From an uncultured Candidatus Saccharibacteria bacterium (GTDB taxonomy: Bacteria; Patescibacteriota; Minisyncoccia; Ryanbacterales; HO2-45-13), in contig CAYHBS010000004.1 of the NCBI GenBank assembly GCA_964354975.1, positions 3,614 to 67,613 on the forward strand: a stretch of 64,000 nucleotides of DNA, written 5' to 3'. The notes under the pieces are model-generated. The model ran no database searches and was not told the origin of the DNA. It worked only from the letters and a program-made list of their open reading frames with translations. Position 1 is the first letter of the stretch. Each line of letters starts with the position of its first letter. The position numbers and the translations under genes were made by a program. This document shows, piece by piece, positions 19,009 to 34,607 of this stretch.

Positions 19009-19058
19009 GGACTTCAGTATACCCCAAAAAAGACCGATATTGAAGTGGAAATACTGAA

Positions 19059-20066
19059 TTATGCGCCGGCGACCGCAGCGAGAATACGCTCCGCCTCAAC
19101 CGCATTCTTTGCAAGCATCAATGCAGATTTGACCTCTCCCAGTGACGGCACTCCTTTCAGGTAGGCATTCAAATGTTTTTTGATGACCGCAAAATGTTTT
19201 TCGTGCCCGTGAAATTCGCGCGTATTCCGATCCGAAGGACCAAAATATTCAACGTACGCAGCGAGGTGCTGCCGCATCACCGCAATGCGCTCGGCGTCGC
19301 TGATTTCAATTTTTCCACTCCCAAACCACGGATTTCCAAACCACGCACGCCCCACCATAATACCGTCCACACCGGTTTCCTCTGCGCGTGTGCGCGCCTC
19401 CTCGAGTGAGGCGACGTCACCATTACCAATAATCAACGTGCCACTTCCGCGCGCTAACTCCACCGCGCGTACCGCAAGATCCCACCGCGCAGGCACTTTC
19501 GACATTTCTTTGCGCGTACGGAGATGGAGTGTGATTGCGTCGGGGTGTGCCGTCAGGAGTGTTGGTAGCCACGTATCAATCTCGACTGTGTTATATCCGA
19601 GTCGGGTTTTAATCGAAACCGGAAGTCCACCACTTTCTGACTGCGCTGCCTGTATTACCTCCACTGCAAGTGCAGGATTTTTTATGAGCGCGGCACCCGC
19701 GCCTTGTTTTTCGATACCGCGGTCGGGACATCCCATATTGATATCAATTCCGTCAAATCCGAGGGACAAGATGAGCGCCGCGCACCGAGCTACGTTATCC
19801 GGTTTTGAAGAAAAAATTTGCGCGACGATCGGGCGCTCGTTCGGTGCATATGATAAATCGCGAAGTAGTTTTGGGCGGCCTTTTTCAGAACAGAGTCCAT
19901 CGCACGAAACAAATTCGGTGTACATCACGTCCGGTCGCCCATGCGCAGCAATCACCCGCCGAAATGCGGGATCGGTGCCGTCTGCCATAGGAGCGCATAC
20001 TAAAAATGGACGTGGAAGTCGCTTCCAAAAATTCGTGGTATGCATTTCTGCGGTAGTCTTCAACAT
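19059..20066 (-). CDS. dus: tRNA-dihydrouridine synthase
   Basis: FLVCAPMADGTDPAFRRV N-terminus and an FMN-binding TIM-barrel Dus signature. Confidence 0.88.
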   Translation of the reverse strand: MLKTTAEMHTTNFWKRLPRPFLVCAPMADGTDPAFRRVIAAHGRPDVMYTEFVSCDGLCSEKGRPKLLRDLSYAPNERPIVAQIFSSKPDNVARCAALILSLGFDGIDINMGCPDRGIEKQGAGAALIKNPALAVEVIQAAQSESGGLPVSIKTRLGYNTVEIDTWLPTLLTAHPDAITLHLRTRKEMSKVPARWDLAVRAVELARGSGTLIIGNGDVASLEEARTRAEETGVDGIMVGRAWFGNPWFGSGKIEISDAERIAVMRQHLAAYVEYFGPSDRNTREFHGHEKHFAVIKKHLNAYLKGVPSLGEVKSALMLAKNAVEAERILAAVAGA

Positions 20067-20181
20067 ATCGCATGAGTATGGTATCTCGTGACTGGATCAT
20101 TTGCACGAACTCCTTCTCCTCTCTATCCAATTCGCGCAACCCTACCCATCCACTATTTACATTTTCACAAATATTATTCCA

Positions 20182-20205
20182 CCCCTAATTCGCGCGAATT
20201 AGGGG
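20182..20205. promoter_or_regulatory. Perfect 24 bp palindrome ccccTAATTCGCGCGAATTAgggg (copy 1)
   Basis: Self-complementary sequence between the arsR-like stop and the dus start. Confidence 0.5.
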
Positions 20206-20240
20206 TATATCATACCACCGCGCTGTTTATAATTACATTT

Positions 20241-20516
20241 TTACAACATCGAGAGTATTGCACGAACTGTGGAAGACTGCGCGCGAGATGTCACAATACG
20301 GTAATGTACTTTCAGTCTGCGCTGTTCTCTCTCAAGGATATCAACACTGAACAGGATGGTGAGATGTTTTGATGTTGCTTTCACCGATAATTTAAGTGCA
20401 CCCGCAATGTCGCTCACTGCCATCTCTTTATTCTTCTGGAGCATGCGCAATATTTCGAGCCTACGCCTGTTTGCAAGGGCTTTTAATGTGCGCTCAATGT
20501 TTTTCATCTGTTCCAT
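20241..20516 (-). CDS. ArsR/SmtB family transcriptional regulator
   Basis: 91 aa winged HTH (RRRLEILRML...VSDIAGALKLSVKATSKHL). Confidence 0.8.
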   Translation of the reverse strand: MEQMKNIERTLKALANRRRLEILRMLQKNKEMAVSDIAGALKLSVKATSKHLTILFSVDILEREQRRLKVHYRIVTSRAQSSTVRAILSML

Positions 20517-20585
20517 ATAACGTACAGTTTGTTTTGATAATATTACACAGTGACTTTTTTGCTATTCAATCTACTTCTTATAGTA

Positions 20586-20607
20586 CCCTAATTCGCGCGA
20601 ATTAGGG
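20586..20607. promoter_or_regulatory. Perfect 22 bp palindrome CCCTAATTCGCGCGAATTAGGG (copy 2), likely ArsR-family operator
   Basis: Identical to copy 1. Lies about 70 bp upstream of the arsR-like start. Confidence 0.5.
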
Positions 20608-20734
20608 ACATAGTACACGGCGGAGGCGTACTATCAATCGCAGCAACGGAGGAAAAACGAGGATACCGCGATCTATGATAAAGAAACGTATCTGTGAGGA
20701 TGCGCTCTTGCCGACGTGCTCCCCCATATACTAC

Positions 20735-22216
20735 TCACTCCGATATTTGAAAAATTGGAAGCACTGAAGCGGTAGCGCCTTCCATATCTTCGACTGCAGC
20801 GGATGTCTTGGTATTTGCCAGGTAGGTATAAAATACGCTTTCGGAAATATACGTACGAATAAGATCGGCATCCTTCTTACGATCAGTACTGCCAAGCAGT
20901 ACAATCCCTATGGGGCGCCCCTCAAATTCAGTCATTTTCAGATTGAACACCGCAACGAGCGTCTCACCTGCAGCGCCCGTAAACCCGCTTTTACTCCCAA
21001 TGTGTCCGGGGGTATCCAAAAATTGGCTGATATTTTTCCATTGATACGCATGGTGCGACTCACTCGCGGGCAGCGCCTTGGTGCGCAACGTCGTTACGTC
21101 AAGTACATGTTGCTTACTGATATAGAGATACCGCGCAAGCCGAATGAGATCGAGCGCGGTGGAAGTGTTTTTTGGCGAAAGTCCACTCGCATCTTCAAAG
21201 TGTGTTTGCTTCAGTCCAATCGACGACACTTTTGTATTCATCAAATCAACAAAACGCCGCTCTCCTACATATTCCGCAAGTGCCATTGCCGCATCGTTAC
21301 TTGATTCGAGGAGTAATGGAAACACAAATTCCTGTACTGCAAGTATGTCCCCAGGAACTAAATCTCCCCCCACCCCTTCGGTATCTACTGCGGTACGCGA
21401 AATAGAAAGTTCTTTGTAGTGGTCAAAATTATCAAACGCAGCGAGCACGGTAAATAATTTGCTAATCGACGCAATTGGCATCACGGTATTTCCTTGCTCT
21501 TCGAGGAGCACATCTCCCGTCGTGAGATCCGCAACCGCAAACGCCGTGGCACTGATACCACTCGGTATAGGAACGCCCGAGGAACGCACATAATATCCTG
21601 TTGGTGCCGCCGTTACTTCGTCGCGTACACCCGTCACGATAATGGGCGTTCCGATATCGATGATTTCAAACAGCGCTTTCGCGTCTTCCGTAGAAAGTCG
21701 AATGCATCCGCCGGAATACGTAGAATTCACGAGCGTACCATCATCCTTGTGCGGCCAGCCGTGAATAAAATAGTTGCCGTAAAAATGCATCGAGTATGGC
21801 ATCCAAATTTTTGCAATCGAAGAGAAGTGATTTTTTTCTTTCGTCTTGATGGCATAGGTGCCCGCGGGAGTCTCATAGGTAGAACCCGGTTTCCCGATCG
21901 CAAGGATGGGAAAGGTGCGATCTGCTTTTCCATCACGAAATACGGTGAGCACATGCGCATGAAGATCCGCATGAATAGACACTCCTTCCTTTGGAATTGA
22001 GAGTGGTTCGCGTACTGTTCCCGGAGTAAATGGCGGAACGGTGTGTTCAGCCTGTGGGATCTCTATTTCCTCGATCGATTCAGCGTCATGTGTTTGGAAT
22101 ACGTCCGATAGTAGCGCGGGAGAATGACCGAGTGCCGTAGCACCCCCCGATGTTAACAAAAAACCCAGCGCGAGGGTAAAGAGTACAAAAAAATGCCTGT
22201 GGACGTAGCGTATCAT
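20735..22216 (-). CDS. Fusion protein: N-terminal L,D-transpeptidase (YkuD) domain plus C-terminal D-alanyl-D-alanine carboxypeptidase (S11, PBP5-like) domain
   Basis: HGWP...SGGCIRL catalytic Cys motif in the N-terminal domain. SISK (SxxK), SSND (SxN) and KSG (KTG) motifs in the C-terminal domain. N-terminal signal/TM. Confidence 0.75.
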   Translation of the reverse strand: MIRYVHRHFFVLFTLALGFLLTSGGATALGHSPALLSDVFQTHDAESIEEIEIPQAEHTVPPFTPGTVREPLSIPKEGVSIHADLHAHVLTVFRDGKADRTFPILAIGKPGSTYETPAGTYAIKTKEKNHFSSIAKIWMPYSMHFYGNYFIHGWPHKDDGTLVNSTYSGGCIRLSTEDAKALFEIIDIGTPIIVTGVRDEVTAAPTGYYVRSSGVPIPSGISATAFAVADLTTGDVLLEEQGNTVMPIASISKLFTVLAAFDNFDHYKELSISRTAVDTEGVGGDLVPGDILAVQEFVFPLLLESSNDAAMALAEYVGERRFVDLMNTKVSSIGLKQTHFEDASGLSPKNTSTALDLIRLARYLYISKQHVLDVTTLRTKALPASESHHAYQWKNISQFLDTPGHIGSKSGFTGAAGETLVAVFNLKMTEFEGRPIGIVLLGSTDRKKDADLIRTYISESVFYTYLANTKTSAAVEDMEGATASVLPIFQISE

Positions 22217-22275
22217 GCGTTCAGTATTTCTATTATACGTGCATGCACAGCATATGCTGCTGTGGATAGAAAAAT

Positions 22276-22299
22276 CCCGTCCCGCCTAGGCGGGACGGG
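22276..22299. terminator. Hairpin cccgtcccgcc-ta-ggcgggacggg followed by a T-run on the minus strand
   Basis: Immediately downstream of the 22314..22718 gene. Confidence 0.55.
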
Positions 22300-22313
22300 C
22301 AGTTGCATTGTCA

Positions 22314-22718
22314 CTACGCGTGCTGACTTTGCGCCACACGCACGAGCGCCGTGTACATGATGCGCTCAATACCTTGCACGACCCGCCGCTCTTCATCGTG
22401 ATGACGAATACGGTATGAGACGCGTAGCATTCGCGTCACGATCTTTGGGCTCTTATTGAGATATAGCGCAAGTGTTGCGGTGGAAAGATCGGGCGCATAC
22501 TTCCGCGCAATGGCGCACACCAGTCTTCTCGCCTCGTTGAAATGGCGTACTGACCGGGAAGATTTCATCTGCTCAAGACTGACGGTTGTCACCTTTGACA
22601 CTGTTGAAGTAATCAACTCCAGTCGCACATACGCGCGCCGACCAAACAGCGCGGCACGAATACTGCGTTCCACTGCGGCCGCGGCGGTGGAAGAGTCCCT
22701 CGGTAATGTTTGTTGCAC
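22314..22718 (-). CDS. DnaA C-terminal (domain IV)-like HTH protein
   Basis: Weak similarity to the DnaA DNA-binding domain (RHFNEARRLVCAIARKY...). No AAA+ domain. Confidence 0.45.
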   Translation of the reverse strand: MQQTLPRDSSTAAAAVERSIRAALFGRRAYVRLELITSTVSKVTTVSLEQMKSSRSVRHFNEARRLVCAIARKYAPDLSTATLALYLNKSPKIVTRMLRVSYRIRHHDEERRVVQGIERIMYTALVRVAQSQHA

Positions 22719-22827
22719 GGTGCTACCTCCTAGATTCTAGGGCGTAACTATACTGGATTATTCCCCGATGTAAAGAGAGTGGGGGCAGCTGATATAGCTA
22801 CCCCCTCCTGTTGAATGCTGTGCGTCA

Positions 22828-23580
22828 TCAGCTACTCGTTTTGGTAGATACGTCGGAAGCGGACGGAACTTTTGCAGGTACCGGGTGAGTGATACCGAGC
22901 ACCTCGTCCAATCGATCGAGTATCAGTTGAATATCACGCAAATGGTCACGTGTTTTTTTGCTTTCATCGATGTCAATGGTCACGACCCCGCGTAATACGG
23001 TGGTATGATTTCTCTGCGAAAGTGCGCCCCCAATATCTGGAAGGGATAGCTGTGTGCGTACGCGCGCGATCCAATAGAGAATATTGCGTGGATAGTTTTG
23101 ACGTCTCTTCTTTTGTCGCGAAAGTATTTCACTTTCTGGTATCTTAAAGTACCACGCGACGACCGCGAGAATACGATCTAATTCGGATGCTGATCGTAAT
23201 CTTTTCAACTCCCCGTCAGAAAACAAGTCGATGGATGGCCGTTTGACGGTATGATCACCCCTATCATCAGCGGTGCGCTCGTATGTCGCGCACGGTGAGT
23301 CCTCACGGTTTATGATACGCGCTTTCGATTGTTGATCTTTCTTCTTATCATGCTCGCCAATACGCTGTTGGGCAGTCAATGCTCCGTGGAACATACACCG
23401 ACCTTCATTCGTAGGATTTCCACATTGAAAGCAATACCTGCGTTTGAGTGTGGTCGGATCTTTTTGCGTGCACTCGCGACAGAGATCGTTTCCCCCCACT
23501 AAATCGATGCGTAGTAGCTGTGTGCCATCTTCGGTGCAATACCGATTAATGCCTCCAAACATGTACGCGTCCATATACAC
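22828..23580 (-). CDS. Zn-ribbon plus DnaA domain IV-like HTH protein
   Basis: C-terminal PRNILYWIARVRTQLSLPDIGGALSQRNHTTVL closely matches the DnaA box-binding signature (RDHTTVLHA). The N-terminus has CxxC...CxxC. Confidence 0.65.
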   Translation of the reverse strand: MYMDAYMFGGINRYCTEDGTQLLRIDLVGGNDLCRECTQKDPTTLKRRYCFQCGNPTNEGRCMFHGALTAQQRIGEHDKKKDQQSKARIINREDSPCATYERTADDRGDHTVKRPSIDLFSDGELKRLRSASELDRILAVVAWYFKIPESEILSRQKKRRQNYPRNILYWIARVRTQLSLPDIGGALSQRNHTTVLRGVVTIDIDESKKTRDHLRDIQLILDRLDEVLGITHPVPAKVPSASDVSTKTSS

Positions 23581-23631
23581 TCCTTAAGGTGCGTTTGATT
23601 GGGTTGTACCATTTTGTAATCAAAATGTACA

Positions 23632-23883
23632 TCAACGCTTGCGCGCGCGTTGAATCAGCCGTAGCTTGCGATCGCGGCGTAACTGCTTAATCGCATGTTC
23701 ACGCGTGAGTGCGTGTGATTTATTTTTACAGCGTTCGGTATACGCAATTGCGACTGGCGGGTGGGACCTCGTATAGCGTCCGCCCCTTCCTGCTTTGTGT
23801 GCGGTAAAACGGCGCGCGAGATTATCGGTACTTCCGGTATACAAACTCCCATCCTTACATTTGAGGATATATATGCACCACAT
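23632..23883 (-). CDS. GIY-YIG nuclease family protein (UPF0213/YhbQ-like)
   Basis: YILKCKDGSLYTGSTDNLARRFTAH is the GIY-YIG motif. Confidence 0.8.
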   Translation of the reverse strand: MWCIYILKCKDGSLYTGSTDNLARRFTAHKAGRGGRYTRSHPPVAIAYTERCKNKSHALTREHAIKQLRRDRKLRLIQRARKR

Positions 23884-23910
23884 AGATACAGTATAAAAGA
23901 AAACCGCCCC

Positions 23911-24138
23911 TCATGGGGCGGGTTGTTTCAAAAAATTCGGGTGCCACGGCAATGTGGTGGTGTTGATTGACTCGCGAATGTTTGCTGGCAGACTCATGCG
24001 AATCACTCTTGCCGCTCCCTCAAGCAGGGTGCGATCGGCGCTCCCTTCATTTGAGCGATGTGCTAATTTCTCAATGAGAACAGCGCACCATTCGTTTTCC
24101 ATCGCACGAATCGTTTGAGATTGCTCTGAAGTACTCAT
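23911..24138 (-). CDS. Hypothetical protein
   Basis: ORF with its own intrinsic terminator hairpin (aaccgcccc/ggggcggtt) overlapping its stop. Confidence 0.4.
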   Translation of the reverse strand: MSTSEQSQTIRAMENEWCAVLIEKLAHRSNEGSADRTLLEGAARVIRMSLPANIRESINTTTLPWHPNFLKQPAP

Positions 24139-24165
24139 TGCATCCCTCCTTGTTCGTTGGGCACT

Positions 24166-24393
24166 CTACCGCCGAAGTGTCAGCGACGCAAGACCTTTAC
24201 GCAAGTTCTCGGTTGCACCACCATAGCGCTGACGAGTCGTCATGTCTCGTGGTGCGTCTCCGAGCTCGGCCTGCGCTATGCGCCGATTCAGCAGAGCTGG
24301 AGTTTCTAGAATTTTGATAGATCTCCTTTTCGACTTTCCGAGACTTTCAGTATTACGCCGTGACTTTTGAGTTCTTGGTAGTAACTTTTTCAT
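24166..24393 (-). CDS. Hypothetical basic protein
   Basis: 75 aa ORF, co-oriented with its neighbours. Confidence 0.35.
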   Translation of the reverse strand: MKKLLPRTQKSRRNTESLGKSKRRSIKILETPALLNRRIAQAELGDAPRDMTTRQRYGGATENLRKGLASLTLRR

Positions 24394-24726
24394 CTACTCC
24401 TCCTGGTGTCATCTGTAGTAATTCTATCACAACAAAACCACGCGCCAAACACGCGTCCGACGCACATAAAAAAATTTAGCGAGCACTGCGGATATTCCCA
24501 ATTTGCACGGAAGCGACTGCCATCGCATCTGCTGCAACGACATCTTGCTCGATCGCAAACTTTTGCACTTCCCCCCACACACCAATAAACGTCACGAGAA
24601 TAATTGCGAGCGTCCAATCGAGCCAGCGTTCGAGAAAGACTTTTTTGTTCATATGTATATTGTGGCACGTTCATCCAGCATGGCGAGCACGGGGTGTGCA
24701 AATCCCTAGAGCGAAGGTATGTGATC

Positions 24727-25452
24727 TTATTTTTCACCTGCGGCGTAGTTAAACGCCTCATGCCAGTTGATATTACGCGTGATATACATCACTCCCGAAA
24801 GTAATGCGAATAGGAGGAGCGAACCCGCGAGGAGCGCATACGTTTCAAGATGGAGCGTAATCAACAAATACGCATAAATAATTGTGAGGAGAAGTGCGAT
24901 GAGCATTCCCCCACTTTTTGTTTTGAGTATGAAATGACTATAGAGCGAAATCAGCGCCGTGGTCATGAGCGCAGCAATGATATACGCCGCTAAAAATCCA
25001 ATGTGCTCCATAAATGCGAGGAGTAATAGATAAAATTCCGCAAGTGAAAGCCCAACAAGTAAATATTGTATCGGGTGGAGCCGGAGGCGATAAAAAATTT
25101 CCATGAGGAAAAACGCAAGGAACGTAAGTACAATAAAAAGAATTGCATACTTCAGCACGCGATCAACAAGTCTATACACGCTTACACCGTTTTCATCAAA
25201 CCCCGGAAGTTTCCCGTGTATAAGCACTTTGGCCACGTCTCCACCTTGTCTCTCTACTGCGGCCCCTTGATATGCAATTCGGTCGTTGACCATTGACTGA
25301 ACAAATAGACTGGCAGCAAAACTCACAATCAAAATCACCCCAATCACGAAGATTTTTATAGCAAACGCAATATACGAAGCAAGCGGTGTGAGTGGCCCCA
25401 TGTACTTATGGTAACACCGGTAGGGCGGTAAAAGTAACGCCATCAAGGACAC
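24727..25452 (-). CDS. Polytopic inner-membrane protein, CreD-family-like
   Basis: Five to six predicted TM helices. The YRLVDRVLKYAILFIVLTF block resembles the CreD family. Real start may be MGPLTP at 25401. Confidence 0.5.
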   Translation of the reverse strand: MSLMALLLPPYRCYHKYMGPLTPLASYIAFAIKIFVIGVILIVSFAASLFVQSMVNDRIAYQGAAVERQGGDVAKVLIHGKLPGFDENGVSVYRLVDRVLKYAILFIVLTFLAFFLMEIFYRLRLHPIQYLLVGLSLAEFYLLLLAFMEHIGFLAAYIIAALMTTALISLYSHFILKTKSGGMLIALLLTIIYAYLLITLHLETYALLAGSLLLFALLSGVMYITRNINWHEAFNYAAGEK

Positions 25453-25497
25453 GAGTAATCACCTGTGTGACTTTAGGAGAGATGAAATAAACAAGAG

Positions 25498-25523
25498 AAA
25501 ACCAGGACGTTAGGTCCTGGTTT
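25498..25523 (-). terminator. Hairpin aaaccaggac-gtta-gtcctggttt followed by ttttctcttgttt on the minus strand
   Basis: 10 bp perfect stem and a U-rich tail in minus-sense. Bounds the structured segment. Confidence 0.5.
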
Positions 25524-25870
25524 GGTTGGCACCCGGAAGGTTGGCGCTCACGCAGTCAATGCTGCCAAGAGTCTCCGCTGAACACAACGAACCACTCGCG
25601 TCGCGAACACAGGAAAGAGAGAACATCACCATCAAGAAAAAAGAAACAAGGCGTTCGCTCGTATGGGAGTGCGCTCGCAAGCACATCCCTCGTACCCAAC
25701 TCGGTACCCGTTGATTGCCTGCGCTCACCAACCTTCCGGGGACTTTTGACCGTCTGTAGAGACGACCAAGAGCCTACAGCAATAATAGCGCGAGAGATAC
25801 AACAGAGCAACTCACCGGAATTGGTGGGCGCAGTGAAAACTTTCCCTAATACTCAATACCTAAATATGAA
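25524..25870. ncRNA. Candidate structured ncRNA downstream of the RT gene, flanked by a 13 bp inverted repeat and bounded by hairpin terminators (strand uncertain, minus favoured)
   Basis: No convincing ORF. IR cccggaaggttgg (25532-25544) / ccaaccttccggg (25728-25740). Internal stem-loops. A/T strand asymmetry. Confidence 0.3.
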
Positions 25871-25902
25871 AAAAGGGGTAGCTGGATTCCGCTACCCCTT
25901 TT
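25871..25902. terminator. Bidirectional intrinsic terminator (aaaaggggtagc-tggattcc-gctacccctttt plus gttttttt) overlapping the RT stop codon
   Basis: 12 bp stem flanked by A-run and T-run. Confidence 0.65.
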
Positions 25903-26836
25903 GTTTTTTTCTCCTCCGCGCAGCTTTCCTCGCTACACGGTATGTATGCACTAGTCGTGTAAAGGTTTGATCGAAGGGTTCTTCCCGCATAATCCCAGAT
26001 ATGACGCCCATTCTTCCAGAAAGTTCAGAGAACCCTTCCCCAGTCTCTAGGAATTTTCTGAGAAGTTTTTTGGTCTTCCAGCGAAATTGTTGTGGAACAA
26101 AAATACGTCCTCCAAGTTCTAGTCCCACGCCATTGACCACTACTGGACCTTTCATCAAATCCCATACGTGCGTCTTTCGATGACTAATAGAAAATCCAGC
26201 GGATTCGATAATGGATCGAATGTTGCTCCGTTTTTTCTCTCCTATCACTTCTGCCGCAGAAAACACAAGATCATCGATATAGCGCGTATAGGTCATACCA
26301 TACCTCGCGACCACAGGGGCAAGCACTCGATCAAGTACTGCGCTCGCATAGATATTAAACAGGTCGGGCGATGCGGGGGCGCCAACTGCAAGTCCACCAG
26401 AGCATGATGCACAATAATTCTCTAGAAATGTGCGTGCCATCTCTACTTCGGTGTTTAGGGGGAGTTGTCCTTCCAATGAAAGTAGAATCTCCGCGAGCGT
26501 ATTGAGATTGATGGTATGATACGCATCACGCAAATCAAGGTGATAGATATATCGATTTTGACGATGACGCGCAACGTGTCGTGCCGGGTTAGCCCCTGGG
26601 CGCGCTCCCGTGGCAAACCGCAGATCGGCGGGTAGTGAACGTAAGTGAGAAATGAGGCGCTTGTGAAGTTGTCTCATCGATGTATTCGGAGCTTCGATAA
26701 GACGCTTTTTCCTCGTACCACTAAGTGGATTGATGTCGTTGTAAAGGAACCTCCGAAACTTCGGAGGTGTTTTTGTTCTGGGCAACAAATCTATCAGATA
26801 CATCTGAAACACCTCCTCTATCCTTGGTTTGGCCAC
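25892..26836 (-). CDS. Reverse transcriptase, retron-type RT domain only (314 aa, GTG start)
   Basis: RT motifs: KKRLIEAPNTSMRQL, NPARHV...YIYHLDLRDAYHTI (NAxxH/motif A-like), GLAVGAPASPDLFNIY, TYTRYIDDLVFS (YIDD), VVNGVGL (VTG-like). No maturase or endonuclease domains. Confidence 0.85.
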   Translation of the reverse strand: MAKPRIEEVFQMYLIDLLPRTKTPPKFRRFLYNDINPLSGTRKKRLIEAPNTSMRQLHKRLISHLRSLPADLRFATGARPGANPARHVARHRQNRYIYHLDLRDAYHTINLNTLAEILLSLEGQLPLNTEVEMARTFLENYCASCSGGLAVGAPASPDLFNIYASAVLDRVLAPVVARYGMTYTRYIDDLVFSAAEVIGEKKRSNIRSIIESAGFSISHRKTHVWDLMKGPVVVNGVGLELGGRIFVPQQFRWKTKKLLRKFLETGEGFSELSGRMGVISGIMREEPFDQTFTRLVHTYRVARKAARRRKKQKG

Positions 26837-27283
26837 ACTCTATCATACACGCGCAGCGAATGATACTTTTCAAGATTCGAGAGAATATCACTCCGCTTTG
26901 CAAATCCCGACGCCTCGGTTGGGGCATGTGTTTTGCAAATCAAAAACCGCCATACTGCGGTTTTTGAGTAAAACTTCTGGCTGCCATGGGTGGGCGCTCA
27001 TTGGCACCGAATAATCAGGGACATCAATACGTTAAATGTTGCTAATACAGAATAGAGCAGCTCTTTTTTGTAAATTGGGTCTCCTGCTAGTGGAAGTTGG
27101 AACTGCGCTTTATAACACAACATCCCTACTGATGGATTTTTTTGATTTACGTGTCACTATTACCTAGCCAACGTTTATATGGGTTTCTGCGGGTAAAATC
27201 TCTCAGGAATATTCCGTAGCTTACATAACCTCTATCTTTATACTATGCTAAAAATGTGATGAAGCTTCAATACATAAGCTTGA

Positions 27284-28522
27284 ATGAATAAGAAAAAAAA
27301 GGTGATGATCTTCGTTGACGGAGAATTCATCCCATCCTACAGTGGGGCGACAAATAGATTTCACTATTTATCTGACGCCCTTCAACGATATACAAATACA
27401 GAAGTTGTTGTCGTTGTGTCCGACCGTGGTTGGACAGACACAAAGCTAATTAGAAAAGAGCGATTTAGGACATATTTGGTTCGCTCTGACTTATTTAAAA
27501 ACATTGACTTTCTGTTCCATCTAGTAAACAGGGAGCAACCTCAGATACTACAATTTGCTAACCTTGAGCTTGCCGTTCAACTAGGCATCCCCTTATCAGT
27601 AATGGGTGGTCAACACTTGGTGTATGAGGCGCATTATGATGATTTGGAATTCGCTAAATCTCTTGGTGCACCCAAAAAACAATTAGATAGCGTAAGGGGT
27701 TTAATGCATCACTTCGGCATTTATTTTGATAAGATTATTTCCCTCAGTAAGGATGACCACCTTGTTAAATCAAGATTTGGGGTTAGCGCGTCTCGCATCG
27801 CTATAGTGCCGAGCGGAATCAGACTAGATGACTTTCCACATAGTTGTTTTAAAGCGACCTCAAAAAAAATAATATTTCTAGGGAATTATTATTATGCCGT
27901 CAATTTAGCGGCTCTGAAACTGATTAGGAATTCTGTTTATCCAAAATTATCTGAGAAAGGATATATTTTTTATATTATTGGTGACATTCCATCCAAGATA
28001 AAGAAATCACTTGAGAAAAAAAACTTCGTAATCGTCGGCAAACAAAGTACGCTAAATACATACTTCAGTAATTCATTGTGCGCCCTTTCACCCGTTGCTG
28101 CTGGGTCCGGGATGAGAATTAAGATACTTGACTATTTGAATGCGGGGCTACCTGTCATCACAACCAGCCAGGGATCGCGGGGGTTCCTAAATAGAAACTT
28201 ATTGATGATTGAGGATGACATTAATAAGTTTTCCGAAATTATAGAGCTCATTGCAAGGTCAACTTTCACCTCTAGATTATTATCTGAGGCAGGCAGAAGG
28301 TTTGTTAGAAAACATATGTCCTGGAGTGTGGTCGCACAAAGCATGTCTGAAGAGTACGATAAAATTCTCCATAAAAGGAGGGTTACAAAGATCAATGCCC
28401 TGAATAGAATAAGTCAGCTAACTGCTCGTGATCCCGCGTGGCTTAAAGAAGTCATCAAAAAGGGGCGTTTTCAGGGAGCGAAACCCCATCTTTCGAAAAA
28501 ATCATATATAGTACTAAATTGA
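27284..28522 (+). CDS. Glycosyltransferase family 1/4 (GT-B fold)
   Basis: C-terminal GT1 signature (AAGSGMRIKILDYLNAGLPVITT). 412 aa. Confidence 0.8.
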   Translation: MNKKKKVMIFVDGEFIPSYSGATNRFHYLSDALQRYTNTEVVVVVSDRGWTDTKLIRKERFRTYLVRSDLFKNIDFLFHLVNREQPQILQFANLELAVQLGIPLSVMGGQHLVYEAHYDDLEFAKSLGAPKKQLDSVRGLMHHFGIYFDKIISLSKDDHLVKSRFGVSASRIAIVPSGIRLDDFPHSCFKATSKKIIFLGNYYYAVNLAALKLIRNSVYPKLSEKGYIFYIIGDIPSKIKKSLEKKNFVIVGKQSTLNTYFSNSLCALSPVAAGSGMRIKILDYLNAGLPVITTSQGSRGFLNRNLLMIEDDINKFSEIIELIARSTFTSRLLSEAGRRFVRKHMSWSVVAQSMSEEYDKILHKRRVTKINALNRISQLTARDPAWLKEVIKKGRFQGAKPHLSKKSYIVLN

Positions 28523-29109
28523 TGAAATCAATCATCGCCCTTGAAGGGCTCCCCTGCTCAGGGAAAACTGAATTTTTTGAGAAGTTCAAAACCAGTGGGG
28601 TGGAAATGTTTTTCATTCCTGAGCTCTACATGGATGCCCGCGACAAAGTGAATGCTAAAGATGCCCGAGCATTATATACTGAGGCTGAGAAGGATAAGTT
28701 TAAAAAAGTGCCTAAAAATGCACATACCATTTTGTGTGATCGATCATATATTTCAACACTCGGATTTTCCTATGCTTATGGGAAAACATTTTGGGAATAC
28801 AGCACATATGACTACAACACTAAGTTTTTTTCTACAAATCACGATGCAATCCTAGTCCCAACGCATGTTATTGTATTTCGAATACCACCCGAAGAAAGTT
28901 TGAGAAGAAGCACAGAGAAGGGCAGAACTGAAGACGTAGCATATTGGCAGAATATTCAGTTTCTGAGTAATTTTGCAGCCTTTTACGAGTCAGATTTATT
29001 AAAAACGCTTATTAAGAGTAAAATAATATTTGTAGACGCATTAAATATCCATCCTGAGCAAGTTTACGGTCAAGTCGATCAATCGATTAGACAATATATC
29101 AGGAAGTGA
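28519..29109 (+). CDS. P-loop nucleoside/nucleotide kinase, deoxynucleoside kinase/thymidylate kinase-like
   Basis: IALEGLPCSGKT P-loop, a DRS motif (LCDRSYIS) and an Arg-rich lid (LRRSTEKGRTED). Confidence 0.55.
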   Translation: MMKSIIALEGLPCSGKTEFFEKFKTSGVEMFFIPELYMDARDKVNAKDARALYTEAEKDKFKKVPKNAHTILCDRSYISTLGFSYAYGKTFWEYSTYDYNTKFFSTNHDAILVPTHVIVFRIPPEESLRRSTEKGRTEDVAYWQNIQFLSNFAAFYESDLLKTLIKSKIIFVDALNIHPEQVYGQVDQSIRQYIRK

Positions 29110-29137
29110 TTATTACGATGTGAGCGGGTCATAATAA

Positions 29138-29992
29138 GTGTGTAGTAAAAATATGGAATCATTTAAAATTGTCCGCCATCTCGAAGAGTCTCATCAAGAG
29201 GAGATTAATCGTGACGCCGATATAGACCCAGAAGAAATTGCATTGCTAAAGACTTACTACTTGCCTGCGATTTTAGAAAATATACGATCAGGAAAATATG
29301 ACAGTGCAACGGTAATCTGCAGCGACAAGTTGCGCTCAAGCCGGACTGCTGACATCCTTCGGGAAGAACTGCAGCGTTATGGAGATATCCCCGTCAATCA
29401 GGAAACTGACGATCGGATCTCTGCTGAAATCCATGGGCGATATAAAACTGGAACAAATTCTGATAATCCTTTAATTGAACGTGCTAAAATGATTTTTTTA
29501 CATGAGGCATTCGAAAAGCACAATGTTTGGTATAGACACGGATCCGCTAGTAATGATGCGGGTGAAATTCTGTATCCTGAGTTGAATGAAATATTTGAAT
29601 CCCCTGGGGAAAATCAAATTGAATTAAATATTCGCATGTATCGATTTGTTTTGGATTTACTCCAGAGGATTGAAGAAAATCCGACAAATCTCTTCATCTT
29701 ATCTGCTCATCATGTAGTGATGTCCACCTTACTTGCACTTCAGCGCATTTCCGAAAAAGGTGGGCCTTTTATTAACATCCGGTACCACCCTCAGGGCTTA
29801 TTGTATGCGGATCAAAATATGGAAACTGAGGAAATGATCGGGGGTTGGGATAATTTTTACGATTATTACAAATCTCGAAACTATATTTTTGATATTGATG
29901 TTCAAAAACTCAAACAGATAAGAGAGATAATCCAGGCTGAGCTGGATCTTTGCCTAGCGAGCTACACTCAACACTACGGAAATAGACTCTAG
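29138..29992 (+). CDS. Hypothetical protein, possible histidine-phosphatase (phosphoglycerate-mutase-like) fold
   Basis: N-terminal VRH and C-terminal LSAHHV motifs weakly resemble the RHG/SHG catalytic motifs. Confidence 0.3.
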   Translation: MCSKNMESFKIVRHLEESHQEEINRDADIDPEEIALLKTYYLPAILENIRSGKYDSATVICSDKLRSSRTADILREELQRYGDIPVNQETDDRISAEIHGRYKTGTNSDNPLIERAKMIFLHEAFEKHNVWYRHGSASNDAGEILYPELNEIFESPGENQIELNIRMYRFVLDLLQRIEENPTNLFILSAHHVVMSTLLALQRISEKGGPFINIRYHPQGLLYADQNMETEEMIGGWDNFYDYYKSRNYIFDIDVQKLKQIREIIQAELDLCLASYTQHYGNRL

Positions 29993-31665
29993 TCGTTTCC
30001 CTTAATGATCTCGGATTTGAGTAGTTTCCCATTGTAGATTAAACCCTTGGTATAATTTATTTTTTCGTAAAGACTTATCGTATCCTCGAGACTATTTGTC
30101 AGTGGCATGCCCTTAAAATTCAGCGATGTGTTGAGCAATAGTGCAATTCCGGTTTTATGGAAAAACAAACTGATTAAGTCACACAGAAATGGATTATCTT
30201 CCTTTGTGATAGTCTGAACTCGCGCACTCCCGTCTACATGTAGAGCCCCTGGTATTTTTGATTGAACTTCGCTCTTAACTTCATACTTGTAAAGCATAAA
30301 AGGAGATTTTGCAGGTCCAGTAAAGTATTCGTTTAACTTACTTTCCAGCACAATCGGAGCGAGCGGCCTGTAGGATTCGCGCTCTTTGATTCTCTCACTT
30401 AACAAGTCTCTTACTTTTTTACTATCCGGTCTTGCTATGAATGACCTGTTGCCTAGCGCACGTGGCCCTACTTCTGATCGTCCATTATGCACAAGTAATA
30501 TGCCATCAGACAGCAATATTTCGATGCATTTCTCAATTGTCTCCGATGAATATTCATATACATGCACCCCCTCGCCCAAGTAGGGAAAACGTGCACCTAT
30601 TCGTCCCCCTAAGACATTGTTTATCAAAATTGACAATGACCCAAGCGATTGACCTGAATCGTCGCAACAGGGCGCCACAAAGTGAATTTTGTCTTTATAA
30701 AATCCTGCGACGCGAGAATTAAGTTCGAGATTTAAACCCACTCCTCCAGACATAATAATTCCATCAACATTTTTTGCGTGTTGATCAATCACTGAAGAAA
30801 TGTCATCCATCTTGTGATTTACAAAGAATTCCTGGACAGTCGCTGCAAAATCTGTTGCTGAATTGGTTGGCCTTAGTGCTTGACCCTTTAATATCCTTAA
30901 TGGACTACTCTCAAAAATCTGGTAAATATCCTCGTACTTTGCAATTTCTATTTCTCGGTAAATCTGCTCCAAGACATCATAATACTCGACACGCACTTTA
31001 CCCAGTCCAGCTAGTGCCATCATTTTGCCATCTGGTGGATTGTGACTATGAAGCTCCGCTCCGTAAAGAAACATAGCACACGCGCCATAAGTTTTCCCGG
31101 AGATGTGCCCGGCTAAATCAATATTTAGCCTAGTTATAGAATTCCCTCTTCCTAAATAGTACGAGTTACACTCATTCATTTTTGTCAGTGGGTCCACGTC
31201 CCCACCACCATCAGAAGTGACAATAAGGACATTTTCAATTCCTGTGGTTAGATATATCCCCGCATGAGATAAGTGATGATTCGTAATCAAAACGTTACGC
31301 CTTAAACCAAAAAAATTAATTTCTTTCCAAAAGGCTGTCTTTAAGGTTTGCTCACCATAATCAATAATGTCTGCTTCCTGCAAAAAGGGATTGTTAAAGG
31401 TGGTCATAGACCAGTACTTCACACTTTCTATTGACTCTCCTAGTATATTGAGGCCGTATCTCACAAGGTATTCCATTTCATCCACAGCGCAAGCTTTTTT
31501 CTTTTCGCGAAACACTCTTTCAGCCTCTAATACCAAACAGATGTTTCTGCCAAACGCAAAAGATGCGGATGAGTCATGAAAATTAAACGAAATACTGCAG
31601 AACAACTCGCCGTCAATATTGGACGCGTGGGACAGTCCAAATTTTTCTGTACCGCTGTTATCCAA
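29989..31665 (-). CDS. Carbamoyltransferase (NodU/CmcH family)
   Basis: N-terminal LSHASNIDG...FHDSSAS and HLSHAGIY blocks typical of NodU/CmcH O-carbamoyltransferases. 558 aa. Confidence 0.8.
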   Translation of the reverse strand: MDNSGTEKFGLSHASNIDGELFCSISFNFHDSSASFAFGRNICLVLEAERVFREKKKACAVDEMEYLVRYGLNILGESIESVKYWSMTTFNNPFLQEADIIDYGEQTLKTAFWKEINFFGLRRNVLITNHHLSHAGIYLTTGIENVLIVTSDGGGDVDPLTKMNECNSYYLGRGNSITRLNIDLAGHISGKTYGACAMFLYGAELHSHNPPDGKMMALAGLGKVRVEYYDVLEQIYREIEIAKYEDIYQIFESSPLRILKGQALRPTNSATDFAATVQEFFVNHKMDDISSVIDQHAKNVDGIIMSGGVGLNLELNSRVAGFYKDKIHFVAPCCDDSGQSLGSLSILINNVLGGRIGARFPYLGEGVHVYEYSSETIEKCIEILLSDGILLVHNGRSEVGPRALGNRSFIARPDSKKVRDLLSERIKERESYRPLAPIVLESKLNEYFTGPAKSPFMLYKYEVKSEVQSKIPGALHVDGSARVQTITKEDNPFLCDLISLFFHKTGIALLLNTSLNFKGMPLTNSLEDTISLYEKINYTKGLIYNGKLLKSEIIKGND

Positions 31666-31688
31666 AAAAATATTTAATTGATCCTTTT

Positions 31689-32153
31689 TTAGCTCACGCC
31701 AATAAATGGATCCTCTGATTCAGCAAAAAACTTTATGTTCTCCCAGAACGTGTTCTTCAGCCTCTTTGGAAATACCTTCAAATCCTGCAAGTCGTCCTTT
31801 GTGAACCACTTTGCCTCTTCTACTGCCCCATTTGGATCAAGATCAATATGTGCTTCATTTAACGCTTGCTCATGAGACATTTTTGCCAACCAGAATGTTT
31901 CAAGACAAATATTTTCAATCTCTCCCTCGATACCGTGAAATTCTTGGAGATAAAGAAGTTTTAGTATTTCGACGTGCATGCCCGTCTCCTCAAGAACTTC
32001 TCGCTTCGCACATTCAACAATGTTTTCAATCTCATATTCCCAACTCCCCCCGGGGGCATACCAAAACTTAGTGCCCTTATTTCTAACTAGCAAAATCTTG
32101 TTCTCGTCAGGCTTGTAAGTTATAACACGAGCTATTGGTTTAATTTTCTTCAT
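31689..32153 (-). CDS. NUDIX hydrolase
   Basis: Nudix box GGSWEYEIENIVECAKREVLEETG. Confidence 0.8.
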   Translation of the reverse strand: MKKIKPIARVITYKPDENKILLVRNKGTKFWYAPGGSWEYEIENIVECAKREVLEETGMHVEILKLLYLQEFHGIEGEIENICLETFWLAKMSHEQALNEAHIDLDPNGAVEEAKWFTKDDLQDLKVFPKRLKNTFWENIKFFAESEDPFIGVS

Positions 32154-32310
32154 AATTAACGGCCGTGAAGCCTTAGTGATTAATATAGAAACTTATCTTC
32201 TTAGTATGCTATCTCAAATACATGCTTTCTGCATCTATTCTTGCTCAAAGAACGTTTGAGAATACATATTAGCTCGCTTCCCCAATGGATGGTAGAACTG
32301 CGATGAGCTC

Positions 32311-32352
32311 CACAATCAATAATAAAGAAATAGTCTCGCACATGCGAGGCTA
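32311..32352. repeat. Long near-perfect hairpin (aataaagaaatagtctcgca / tgcgagGctatttctttatt)
   Basis: About 20 bp stem with one bulge, immediately left of the direct-repeat copy. Confidence 0.5.
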
Positions 32353-32361
32353 TTTCTTTAT

Positions 32362-32383
32362 TTTGTTGCGGGACCGGGATTTG
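32362..32383. repeat. Direct repeat copy A, tttgttgcgggaccgggatttg (22 bp perfect, with about 50 bp of imperfect extension)
   Basis: Identical 22-mer at 37315-37336. Confidence 0.6.
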
Positions 32384-32553
32384 ATTGGAACCAAGTCTTC
32401 GGGCACATACGGGAAATCGCTATATTCAGTAAAGAAGTGCTCATGCCCGCGTGAAGGGGTGAGGGTGCAGATTTGACGGTATGGGTATTTAAAAAGAATG
32501 CTATTGATAGGCATATAGCATTCTCCTTTAAAGCTCTATCATTCAAATCGTGT

Positions 32554-32958
32554 TCACTGTGGGTATTTCCTGAAACAGTCTGATTTATTTTGCTGAAGCT
32601 GTGCGTCATTCTTATCATGCGCATCAGTAAATGCCGCCGCCCCCACACAGGTGCCACCGCCATCTACTTTACAATCTTCATACATTCCAACTAACTGTCT
32701 CCCCCATTCCTGCCAGTCAATTTCCGCGTTAGTTATGCAAGTATTCAATAATTGTTTAGCCTTCTCTTCAGTACGTGACTCCGTGAATGATTTATTAATT
32801 TGCTCCTGTCTTTCCTGCTCGATTTTTATTAGTTGCTGCTTTTCAATAGACCTTTGCTTGTTTACTTCACTTGCGAAGTAAAAACCGCCCAAAATAATAC
32901 TCGCGACAATAATCGTGACTGGTAATGACAGGTTATTAAATCTTGCGAAGATATCCAA
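32554..32958 (-). CDS. Secreted/membrane-anchored Cys-rich protein (DUF1311/LprI-like, tentative)
   Basis: N-terminal TM and a C-terminal domain with four Cys. Confidence 0.35.
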   Translation of the reverse strand: MDIFARFNNLSLPVTIIVASIILGGFYFASEVNKQRSIEKQQLIKIEQERQEQINKSFTESRTEEKAKQLLNTCITNAEIDWQEWGRQLVGMYEDCKVDGGGTCVGAAAFTDAHDKNDAQLQQNKSDCFRKYPQ

Positions 32959-32963
32959 ATTTT

Positions 32964-33950
32964 TTAGTTATCTTCAAATAAGCTCCCTGCAATCCAATCG
33001 TCGGTTCCGGTTGCTGTTCTGTTTAGTCCTCCACTGACCGTAGCGTGGGGTCCCCAGGATAAATTACCGTTCCCACCAGTTACTGATGAGCCTCCGCTAC
33101 GAGCTTCATTGAATACTCCGCCGCAAACGGCAGCAGAGCCCCCACTGGCAAGATTATCATTTCCTCCGGCAACCGACGCATAATCTGCGGTTGTTTTGTT
33201 TCTCAATCCTCCGCTAATAGTTGAGCTGTTTCCAATAACATTATTTCCTTCTCCGCCAGACACCGATGCATATACACCTGTAGTAGAATTATATCTTCCG
33301 GCTCCAATCCACGACATTAAACCATTGGCAGAATTTCTCCATCCGCCCGTGATAGAGGAAAGCTCTCCAACAGCGTGGTTTTCACTACCACCAACAATTG
33401 TTGAGTTCGCACCGACCAATTGGTTTTGTCGACCAGTAGTAAAGCCGCCATAGCTGATATATTCATGCTCCGGCCCAACAACAAGATTGTGCGAACCGTC
33501 TCGAGAAAATAGGCCGGTGCTTTGCTCATTGTAACCTATAATTAAGTTTCCTAAACCATTCTTTGTTGCCGTACTTCCAGCGCCATTTGTAAGGTGTATG
33601 TTGCATCCTTCAAAATACACATCATTACCATCAACTCTCACACAGGGGATGGATGTTCCGGCAATACCTTGTGGTCCTTGCTCTCCTTGTGAGCCCGCTT
33701 CACCTTGAGGGCCTTGCGCCCCTGTTGCCCCCTGAATATTCCAGACCACGAGCTTTTCTCCCTCTCTGCAAACCGTACGTCTAAAGCCGTCACCTATCAT
33801 CTGCATCGTTCCGTCTCTTTTTACACATGCAGCAAGAGTTTCTCCGCCCACTTGCCCATAAGTTTGAGCAGCAAACATGAGAATTAAGATAACAATACCC
33901 CCGGCAACAAATGAGGGCATATTGATTTGAGAATATTTTGAATAGTTCAT
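32964..33950 (-). CDS. Collagen-like triple-helix repeat protein with C-terminal SGG/NG-repeat beta-helix (phage tail-fibre-like)
   Basis: G-x-y run (GATGAQGPQGEAGSQGEQGPQGIAGT). Repeated xSGGxxN units. N-terminal signal/TM. Confidence 0.6.
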   Translation of the reverse strand: MNYSKYSQINMPSFVAGGIVILILMFAAQTYGQVGGETLAACVKRDGTMQMIGDGFRRTVCREGEKLVVWNIQGATGAQGPQGEAGSQGEQGPQGIAGTSIPCVRVDGNDVYFEGCNIHLTNGAGSTATKNGLGNLIIGYNEQSTGLFSRDGSHNLVVGPEHEYISYGGFTTGRQNQLVGANSTIVGGSENHAVGELSSITGGWRNSANGLMSWIGAGRYNSTTGVYASVSGGEGNNVIGNSSTISGGLRNKTTADYASVAGGNDNLASGGSAAVCGGVFNEARSGGSSVTGGNGNLSWGPHATVSGGLNRTATGTDDWIAGSLFEDN

Positions 33951-34607
33951 GATAGTTTTGATATTAACTAATAATTTTTGATAATTTTACCTCGGCAACA
34001 CAAAACCCACCGCTAGGCGATGGCTTGCGCCACCTACCACTCTTTCGAGCGGTAACCACTGCTGGTGCTCCTAAACGATGGGTTTAGTAGCCAGCAGTGG
34101 TTTTTTGCCATGCCACGAGAAAGGTTGTGGTTTAGGCACACAATACATGTATCTATTTAGTTGTACATCACAATCGTATACTTGCGCTACATACCTGTAA
34201 AGAGTGGGACTAATTGTTAAGCGTATTTATTTCCTCTTGATTATTGGACAAGATTATGCTAAGTTAAAAATAGAAAGTACTTAAGAAAATTATTTTTCCT
34301 GCACAAACGTTCTCGACTGTAATCTACGTATAGCTTGATGCACTCCGAGGGCCAAAGTGACAATATCCCTGAAATATGGGAGGCCATGTTTTCGGCCAGG
34401 CTTCAGTTCAATGCGTGTTATCACTTGGGGAACGATGGAAAAATTTATATTTTTGTGATTACTTGGCGAGATGAATTGACGGGCACCAATCGGTGATACC
34501 CGCGAATCGCGACTAGATGAGTATGTGCAATGCACTCATTTGTGAGGCGTTGCTTTGTTATTCGTCACATCCCGTCAGAGAGTCACAACGAAGCAACGGC
34601 ATCAGAA

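Follow-up and report, generated by a model that had tools for sequence, protein, structure and literature searches.

On the minus strand of the 64,000-nucleotide DNA stretch analyzed here (the window), which comes from an uncultured groundwater bacterium of the Patescibacteria (candidate phyla radiation, CPR), an open reading frame (ORF) for a reverse transcriptase (RT) is followed by a structured element (25740-25526) that, judged from its sequence, is a divergent member of a family of non-coding RNAs (ncRNAs) found beside related RTs. The RT ORF (25892..26836) is uninterrupted, matches Pfam RVT_1 (E=1.4e-18), features the active site YIDD, and encodes 314 aa when read from the GTG at 26836. 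Translation probably starts at the ATG at 26803 instead, to give a protein of 303 aa, because a Shine-Dalgarno sequence, GAGGAGG, can be read on the minus strand 8 nt 5' of this codon (26812..26818), a database protein from public assemblies (P0001) is 100% identical to the window RT over 303 aa, and the additional N-terminus appears disordered, the 10 N-terminal residues of the GTG form having pLDDT values (predicted local distance difference test) below 50 in an AlphaFold (AF2) model. The RT gene is flanked on both sides by unusually long spacers, of about 440 nt each, and its neighbors are a glycosyltransferase gene on one side and a gene for a membrane protein of the CreD family on the other. 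A terminator-like hairpin of 12 bp (25871..25902, minus strand) overlaps the RT stop codon; T/A runs at both of its flanks suggest that it could terminate transcription in either direction. Assemblies from Hainich groundwater and two Logan runs contain copies of the whole neighborhood that are identical or 99.5% identical. The near-identical contigs L077-L080 vary only in the CreD gene, and are therefore uninformative for the RT or the ncRNA.

The window RT belongs to the retron superfamily. An earlier note, made from the letters of this DNA, had described it as a retron-clade enzyme with nothing beyond the RT domain, and profile, PDB sequence and fold matches agree on a retron-clade protein limited to the RT/thumb fold. 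In the PADLOC comparison (68 families), retron RT models make up the best 25 (4e-28 to 7e-16), among them RT_other (96.8 bits), RT_outgroup (95.4), III-A (90.9), II-A (86.5) and X (85.9); none of the type-specific PADLOC/Mestre models, which cover 13 described retron types, is clearly best. The top NCBIfam match is retron_St85, at 94 bits and below its equivalog cut-off, group II RT/maturase, Drt3a and Drt2 scoring 33, 27 and 26 bits, respectively. All 13 PDB chains matched by phmmer come from retron RT entries (Kva2, Ec67, Ec86, Ec83, Ec78). Predicted with a pLDDT of 92.7 and a pTM (predicted template modeling score) of 0.89, the modeled fold of the protein points the same way: the top 18 PDB structures in a Foldseek search are retron RTs, aligned over about 300 columns, and structures of group II, DRT2, G2L4, DRT9 and diversity-generating retroelement (DGR) RTs rank after them.

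Relatives of the window RT are 32-51% identical to it and all about 300 aa long. The named ones are all from Patescibacteria (Parcubacteria/Paceibacterota, Saccharibacteria, Berkelbacteria, Wildermuthbacteria and others), and the family appears to be an undescribed retron-like lineage, apparently restricted to this group. An exhaustive HMMER scan of 1.84 billion representatives (clustered at 50% identity) retrieved 232 of them at E<=1e-30, a number that rises to 745 at E<=1e-10; no family members were found on IMG/VR viral contigs. One relative, P0047 (418 aa), is annotated with Pfam PF01807, a CHC2 primase-type zinc finger, besides RVT_1, and may be a fusion of an RT with a primase domain in an otherwise single-domain family.

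All 22 invariant columns of a 41-sequence alignment, YxDD included, are kept in the window RT. The catalytic box reads YLDD in 73 and YIDD in 15 of 93 members: the isoleucine, which the earlier note had linked to group-II-like RTs, is thus a family trait and provides no tie to them, leucine or isoleucine being the norm at this residue and group II, G2L, DRT and DGR RTs scoring well below retron RTs. The motifs quoted in the same note (NPARH..YIYHLDL, TYTRYIDD and VNGVGL) are all present in the 25892-26836 ORF. Of these, NPARH (residues 83-87), named there as an NAxxH-like block, lies four residues out of register, and the segment that aligns with region X of the family is HVARH (residues 87-91). 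In retrons, region X is NAxxH, between RT motifs 3 and 4, and region Y a VTG triplet in motif 7; the family consensus is N[VAIL]xxH for region X and [IV][TN]G for region Y. The former is found as NVxxH (24), NAxxH (6), NLxxH (6) or NIxxH (4) in the 44 sequences scored; among these 44 of 93 members matched by the motif scan, the window RT is the sole one with HVxxH. Region Y, VNG in the window, is mostly ITG (27) or ING (24), less often VTG (4) or VNG (4), the glycine being invariant.

The strongest inverted repeat near the RT resides in the 3' flank of the gene (25453-25891), and is perfect over 13 bp (25728-25740 and 25532-25544, with 183 nt between the arms), or 15 bp long if G-U pairs are counted. 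It bounds an element of 209 nt on the RT strand, which begins 152 nt 3' of the stop codon. All of its components lie on the minus strand. The a2-like 5' arm of the closing stem (CCCGGAAGGTTGGTG, 25726..25740) and the a1-like 3' arm (CGCCAACCTTCCGGG, 25532..25546) are continued inwards by a second helix, in which GCGCAG (25719..25724) pairs with CTGCGT (25550..25555) in centroid folds. A TTGG within the 5' arm resembles the TTA-G branch context of retrons. Two msr-like hairpins follow, hairpin 1 (GTACC-GAGTTG-GGTAC, 25692..25707) and hairpin 2 (GGGATGTGCT-TGCG-AGCGCA-C-TCCC, 25665..25689), the latter with the geometry of the family consensus. The next 118 nt (25547..25664) make up a variable, msd-like putative template region with no long stable hairpin. 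This region includes a pyrimidine-rich tract (25611..25649), a candidate site for the stop of reverse transcription, the family motif TCAGCGG (25575..25581), located 28 nt before the 3' arm, and the hexamer TTGGCA (X, 25563..25568). The complement of X, TGCCAA (X', 25526..25531), directly abuts the 3' arm. Finally, a terminator-like hairpin of 10 bp followed by a T-run (25499..25523) is predicted to end the ncRNA transcript. The element folds with a z-score of -3.05, or -3.6 with the terminator included. TCAGCGG occurs eight times in the 128 kb of the two window strands, so that a copy in the proper register would be expected by chance with a probability of about 0.002.

Elements of this kind were monitored in 39 genome loci (489 kb) and 74 metagenome loci (304 kb), two sets which partly overlap. 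Most of the 39 genome loci have, beside the RT, a perfect inverted repeat of 10-16 bp with a span of about 200-380 nt; roughly a dozen of these repeats end some 20-90 nt before the start codon or overlap it, and about ten begin 15-150 nt after the stop codon. In most homologous loci an element bounded by inverted repeats, some 200-300 nt long, lies on the RT strand before the gene, after it, or on both sides. Primary sequences of the flanks are too diverged for BLASTN, which found only a shared TTATTACYCAAGTAATAA hairpin in L016, L026 and L029, later recognized as hairpin 1. Alignment of the elements by MAFFT (A2, A3) gave no consistent structure, and a covariance model (CM) was therefore seeded from four sequences of the same geometry (A4). 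This model, R1, has 47 positions and 18 pairs, and describes hairpins 1 and 2 of four upstream elements (L018, L011, L013, L001) whose RTs are 39-44% identical to the window RT; the window and all downstream elements were excluded. Of 35 R1 matches in the genome loci, 34 fall on the RT strand, and none is farther than about 750 nt from the RT ORF. In the metagenome loci 52 of 53 matches are on the RT strand and adjoin the RT, 46 loci having at least one. A second model, R2, was built from the 35 R1 matches. In the alignment of the matches in the genome loci, paired cells amount to 95.5%, against 44-60% in slid controls, and compensatory changes occur in 16 of 18 pairs, as counted after fitting to the structure of the model, a procedure which favors that structure.

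Searched over the whole 64-kb window, on both strands and with filters off, R1 has its best match at 25665-25707 on the minus strand, that is, at the two hairpins of the element (19.1 bits, E=0.0064); the next-best match has an E-value of 0.23. R2 also ranks the window element first (15.5 bits, E=0.052), with only hairpin 2 well aligned. Hairpin 1, which is aligned by R1, retains only two base-proximal pairs in the R2 alignment, and R2 performs no better than R1 on the window because hairpin 1 is divergent here. The covariance-model search of both RT flanks, which the earlier note had proposed, thus places a family element downstream of the gene, and the statement in that note that no msr-msd is recognizable gives way to a family-conserved element with a1/a2-type boundaries. 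Retron ncRNAs are annotated by an a1/a2 repeat of more than 8 bp, by a priming G, and by hairpins no farther than 500 bp from the RT (PMC10849725); the window element has a repeat of sufficient length and short hairpins, all within this distance. The gene order msr-msd-ret, with the ncRNA directly upstream, is found in the majority of relatives and not in the window.

The anatomy of the elements, as seen in folds of upstream examples, is largely shared. The closing stem, commonly bipartite, is followed after about 40 nt by hairpin 1, the loop of which is often ACUCAxGU, and by hairpin 2, with the consensus GGGAxxxxx-tetraloop-xxxxxUCCC. Then come a pyrimidine tract, a variable region, the motif (A)CCUCAGCGG and, after 15-30 nt, the 3' arm. 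Of 57 non-redundant elements, 42 have a 12-nt stretch with at least 11 pyrimidines in the 45 nt that come after hairpin 2, against 10% of control stretches. In most elements TCAGCGG precedes the 3' arm by 14-36 nt, and its complement CCGCTGA comes directly after the arm. An X/X' helix of at least 6 bp can be formed in 37 of the 57 elements, compared to 9.3% when X' is shuffled (binomial 1e-24), and is preserved by compensatory variants such as TCAACGAC/GTCGTTGA, CTCAGCT/AGCTGAG and TCAATG/CATTGA. Since the order of the segments is a2, X, a1, X', the X/X' helix would be either a pseudoknot or a pairing competing with the closing stem. To our knowledge, nothing similar has been described for retron ncRNAs. 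TT[AG]G occurs in 21 of the 57 5' arms, against 17% in shuffled sequences, and the last nucleotide of the arm is a G in 27. Folded as RNA, the template regions have a median z-score of -1.3, 19 of 57 falling below -2. Rfam 15 has no family for these elements, as checked on the 25300-27400 interval at E<=10, on the whole window at gathering thresholds, and on six strong family elements. Neither R1 nor R2 matches at the deep-branching members L035-L039, L148-L152 and L007/L092. Upstream of the RT in L007, hairpins and a pyrimidine tract resemble a diverged element. The RNA family is probably broader than the two models capture.

Location and copy number of the ncRNA vary. Among the 46 metagenome loci with a match, 33 have it upstream only, 12 downstream only, and one on each side. 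Upstream-only matches end 54-513 nt (mostly 113-320) before the estimated RT start; downstream-only matches begin 72-458 nt after the stop codon. On a neighbor-joining (NJ) tree of 93 RTs the downstream arrangement is found in several separate clades, one of them coherent and made up by about ten members; it is also seen in L005/L006/L096, L009, L003 and the window. Loci with both sides occupied (L011, L005, L109) and loci with tandem pairs of elements (L001, L002, L021, L094, L104, L120 and L132, and downstream in L003) are scattered on the tree. In L011 (5760-5977 and 7077-7316) hairpins 1 and 2 of the two copies are almost identical, while arms and template regions are unrelated, and the same holds for the paired elements of L094 (84-342 and 457-654) and of L001, L002, L003, L021, L104, L120 and L132. 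Changes of position may have occurred by duplication followed by loss of one copy.

The 447 nt upstream of the window RT contain no match to R1 or R2 on the RT strand and no match to Rfam, and lack an msr-msd, as the earlier note had maintained. That note had also named a canonical upstream msr-msd as the observation which would overturn its reading: elements in this position are typical of the family, the window itself having its element on the other side. The only inverted repeat of the upstream spacer is weak, A/T-rich and 10 bp long (27148-27132 / 26953-26937, span 212); it was considered as a possible ncRNA and discarded, as neither model matches there on the RT strand. The same spacer contains a terminator-like hairpin, AAAAACCGC-AGTAT-GCGGTTTTT, at about 26940-26963, and, after it on the minus strand (26890-26965 region), a small GC hairpin with a copy of GATTTGCAAA on each side. 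The spacer may have a regulatory function, or it may encode a further small RNA.

No gene accompanies the RT regularly. In an all-against-all comparison of the four neighbors on either side, taken from ORFs of 70 aa or more and at the sensitivity of BLASTP, no neighbor family was found in more than 5 of the 39 genome loci. Two recurrent families are annotated as ABC-type ATPases and amino-acid permeases; tRNA synthetase, SMC, HtrA-type protease and chloride channel genes are further neighbors sampled, and these neighbors are of the housekeeping kind. PADLOC defence models found no match among the nine ORFs tested around the window RT. The CreD-family membrane protein, the proximity of which had been taken in the earlier note to fit a defence-type or repair-type RT system, is not supported as a functional partner, being conserved beside the RT in none of the 39 loci, and free-standing, the term used there for the RT, is borne out in the sense that no protein partner conserved in these loci adjoins it. 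The lack of a conserved protein neighbor indicates a stand-alone cassette made up by the ncRNA and the RT.

Genes for tRNAs lie within about 1 kb of the cassette in about 7-8 of the 39 genome loci, the rough chance expectation being about 3-4. The loci concerned are L012 (6910-7479), L022 (5041-5372), L025 (5291-5513), L023 (5148-5220 and 7168-7239), L026 (1777-1852), L122 (1858-2801) and L084 (2133-2525), the neighbor in L084 being the RNase P RNA. Cassettes may insert beside stable-RNA genes, as these cases hint.

Taken together, the data probably denote a stand-alone retron-type cassette, in which a compact RT (25892-26803) is combined with a cognate downstream ncRNA (25740-25526) provided with its own terminator (25523-25499). 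The comparison of genome loci shows that the RT lineage and the ncRNA co-occur, with the ncRNA on the RT strand and no more than about 750 nt away from the RT ORF. The 15-bp a2/a1 stem, along with the inner 6-bp helix, brings the ends of the RNA together. By analogy with solved retrons, the RT would recognize the two covarying msr-like hairpins. Retron biochemistry suggests that a guanosine in the TTGG context, close to where the 5' arm ends at its 3' side, may provide the 2'-OH primer; functional retrons have a TTA-G branch context (PMC10849725). Copying by the RT would then begin immediately 5' of the 3' arm, pass TCAGCGG and afterwards the variable region, and stop at the pyrimidine tract; retron reverse transcription is known to end preferentially before an AT-rich stretch (PMC10849725). 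The expected product is an RNA-linked cDNA of roughly 70-115 nt, and it is in this sense that the window cassette may synthesize multicopy single-stranded DNA (msDNA). Pairing of X with X' across the 3' arm probably clamps the closing stem, or competes with it. As no effector gene is adjacent, the output would act alone or with factors encoded elsewhere.

Several features of the window weigh against this interpretation. The CM scores of the element are modest (19.1 and 15.5 bits) and rest mainly on hairpin 2, and the procedure by which covariation was counted has the bias mentioned above. The spacer between the 5' arm and hairpin 1 is 18 nt long, compared to about 40 nt usually; the loop of hairpin 1 differs from the family consensus, and X/X' depart from the common TCAGCGG/CCGCTGA pair, both in sequence and in their register. 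The template region folds with a z-score of -0.12 as RNA and of +1.2 as DNA of the complement, and has no long msd stem. In region X the window RT has a histidine where at least 90% of relatives carry an asparagine. The strong 12-bp terminator hairpin at 25871-25902 is interposed between the RT and the ncRNA, and expression of the latter therefore requires read-through or a promoter of its own; no minus-strand promoter passing the scan criteria was found in front of the ncRNA. The sequence TTGCTC-17-TATTAT (25810-25782, minus strand) is promoter-like by eye, fails those criteria, and is not claimed.

A broader interpretation, tentative and with a minor share of the probability, is that the Patescibacteria elements represent an effector-free RT-ncRNA class, in which one RT would serve one or several position-independent ncRNAs that share the hairpins and differ in the templates. 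The X/X' helix would act as a pseudoknot or a switch, and the functional output would be the cDNA itself, or the result of unconventional priming or template-jumping, rather than a toxin held by msDNA.

Close to it stands the view, which we deem unlikely, that RT and ncRNA are indeed partners but work in a non-classical manner, either because the 3'-OH of a snapped-back X' serves as primer, or because synthesis is repetitive and template-jumping as in DRT2 systems, the cDNA being the effector. The lack of a conserved protein effector, common to the RT-plus-ncRNA DRT2 systems, fits this view, as do the strong conservation of X/X', which crosses the a2/a1 stem and features compensatory changes, the inconsistent occurrence of a long msd hairpin across the family, and the frequent association of one RT with two ncRNAs having the same hairpins and different variable regions. 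The DRT2 structure 9c0i is among the fold matches (4.4e-11). Yet by HMM score and fold rank the RT is far closer to retron RTs than to DRT2, DRT9 or G2L4; the a1/a2 repeat suits the retron scheme, along with the proximal hairpins and the TT[AG]G context, and in upstream-placed elements X' would be inside a longer transcript, not at its 3' end.

The window cassette could also be a decaying or inactive copy, in which the RT and a degenerate ncRNA persist and cDNA is no longer made. Hairpin 1 is weak and CM scores are low, the canonical CCGCTGA is absent after the 3' arm, the template region is devoid of a stable stem, the N-to-H substitution in region X is unique, and a terminator separates the RT from the ncRNA. 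Decay is nevertheless an improbable explanation for a locus in which the RT ORF is intact and keeps the 22 invariant columns, including YxDD, the closing stem has 13 perfect base pairs, the usual X/X' pair is replaced by another, the element has a well-formed terminator of its own, and identical or 99.5% identical copies are found in several groundwater samples.

That the downstream structure is an unrelated small RNA or a terminator-rich spacer, and the RT is truly without ncRNA, as initially read in the earlier note, is very improbable. The E-values of 0.0064 and 0.052 obtained with the two models in the window are not extreme, inverted repeats and stable folds can arise in spacers, and Rfam provides no match. 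On the other hand, the best match of both models in 128 kb falls inside an inverted-repeat-bounded element on the RT strand, with the length and the internal order of the family; an in-register TCAGCGG has a chance of about 0.002, a pyrimidine tract and an X/X' pair are also present, and the downstream placement recurs in several RT subclades.

The idea that the RT is a group II intron, G2L or DGR enzyme, prompted by the isoleucine at x of YxDD, which the earlier note had associated with group-II-intron-like free-standing RTs, and in keeping with the presence of group II, G2L4 and DGR structures lower in the fold list, has a negligible probability, as TIGR04416 (group II RT/maturase) reaches 32.8 bits where its cut-off is 300, such RTs are about 100 aa longer than the protein of the window, no direct repeat of at least 35 nt of the template/variable repeat (TR/VR) type was found within 18000-34000, and no group II intron RNA, which that note had named, together with a phylogenetic placement among group II intron RTs, as refuting its reading, was detected by Rfam scans of the whole window at gathering thresholds and of 25300-27400 at E<=10. 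No second copy of the ncRNA region was found in the window, and motif 4 of the RT, GAPASPDLFN, is presumably not of the DGR type.

Other features of the window lie apart from the cassette. Beyond the CreD gene, the 22314-23883 interval (minus strand) contains a small GIY-YIG-like ORF (23632-23883) and two ORFs resembling the C-terminal helix-turn-helix (HTH) domain of DnaA. Of this accessory trio, the 22828-23580 ORF is the only one with a recorded Pfam match (Bac_DnaA_C); the GIY-YIG-like (23632-23883) and DnaA-C-like (22314-22718) assignments were read from the translations. A full-length match to the LOOT RNA (RF03000; 87.3 bits, gathering threshold 46.4) was found at 34019-34138 on the minus strand, directly upstream of the start of the 32964-33950 ORF on the same strand. 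A group I catalytic intron, complete over model positions 1-253 (RF00028; 76.6 bits), lies at 37363-37611 on the minus strand, opposite to, and between or overlapping, the plus-strand ORFs 35812-37404 and 37734-38438; ARAGORN detected no tRNA at this intron.

Stand-alone (msr-msd)-RT cassettes are known from retron clades 2 (the Retron-Eco5/Ec107 branch) and 11 (PMC7736814), and effector-less retrons as such are therefore not new. Like those, the cassette described here combines a retron-superfamily RT of about 300 aa with a contiguous ncRNA closed by an a1/a2 repeat, has no specific effector gene, and resides among unrelated host genes. It differs in the RT lineage (only 66 bits with the PADLOC RT_Ec107-like model), in the hosts, which apparently are Patescibacteria only, whereas clades 2 and 11 are from Gammaproteobacteria and Actinobacteria, and in the ncRNA, which features TCAGCGG, X/X' and a pyrimidine tract, and may be placed downstream or doubled.

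Solved retron RTs (Eco1/Ec86, Eco7/Ec78, Eco2/Ec67, Ec83, Eco8, Kva2) share the full-length fold with the model of the window RT, with template modeling (TM) scores of about 0.6-0.66 over 285-370 columns, and match it in sequence with E-values down to 2.5e-11. The logic of the ncRNA, with an end-pairing stem, RT-proximal hairpins and a template region, is the same. In contrast, identity is only 14-22%, and the family has YIDD/YLDD in place of YADD, [IV][TN]G as region Y, and N[VAIL]xxH as region X (HVARH in the window). Differently from solved retrons, the window has neither an effector nor a fused effector domain, its ncRNA is 3' of the RT, and a long msd hairpin is missing.

Type VI retrons of Bacteroidota (L040, L053) provide the next-nearest sequences outside the CPR family (26-30% identity), and for three other members of the CPR family RT_VI is, by a narrow margin, the top PADLOC model. 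True type VI RTs, however, score 216-226 bits on RT_VI and about 172-175 on the next model, whereas the three CPR members score 90-102 bits on RT_VI, no better than on type II, III and X models. Type VI systems reportedly carry an associated small HTH protein, whereas no partner protein is conserved in the CPR family. DRT2 (UG2) systems also associate an RT with a structured ncRNA and no protein effector. The window RT has no specific sequence relationship to them, the score with NCBIfam Drt2 (NF041746) being 25.8 bits against a cut-off of 390; in the structural comparison DRT2 ranks below all retron RTs, and the ncRNA is unrelated.

No description of the Patescibacteria lineage, of its ncRNA family, of X/X', of the downstream or duplicated placement, or of the L/I catalytic box was found in open-access papers and preprints, and Patescibacteria are unmentioned in the 2020 retron classification, in the 2021 and 2022 RT reviews, and in a 2026 metagenome survey.

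Proteobacteria, Bacillota, Bacteroidota and Actinobacteria account for most of the retrons catalogued so far. The family described here appears to add a coherent CPR lineage, present in many CPR classes, with a covarying ncRNA family of its own outside Rfam and no adjacent effector. As ncRNAs may follow the RT or be duplicated, pipelines that search upstream only would call such RTs ncRNA-less, in the manner of the earlier note. Small RTs of 300 aa with defined RNA partners are also candidates for RT-DNA tools. The host organisms have genomes of about 1 Mb and few known defence systems, and the cassettes they carry would offer a concrete, testable case for the role of an effector-less retron.

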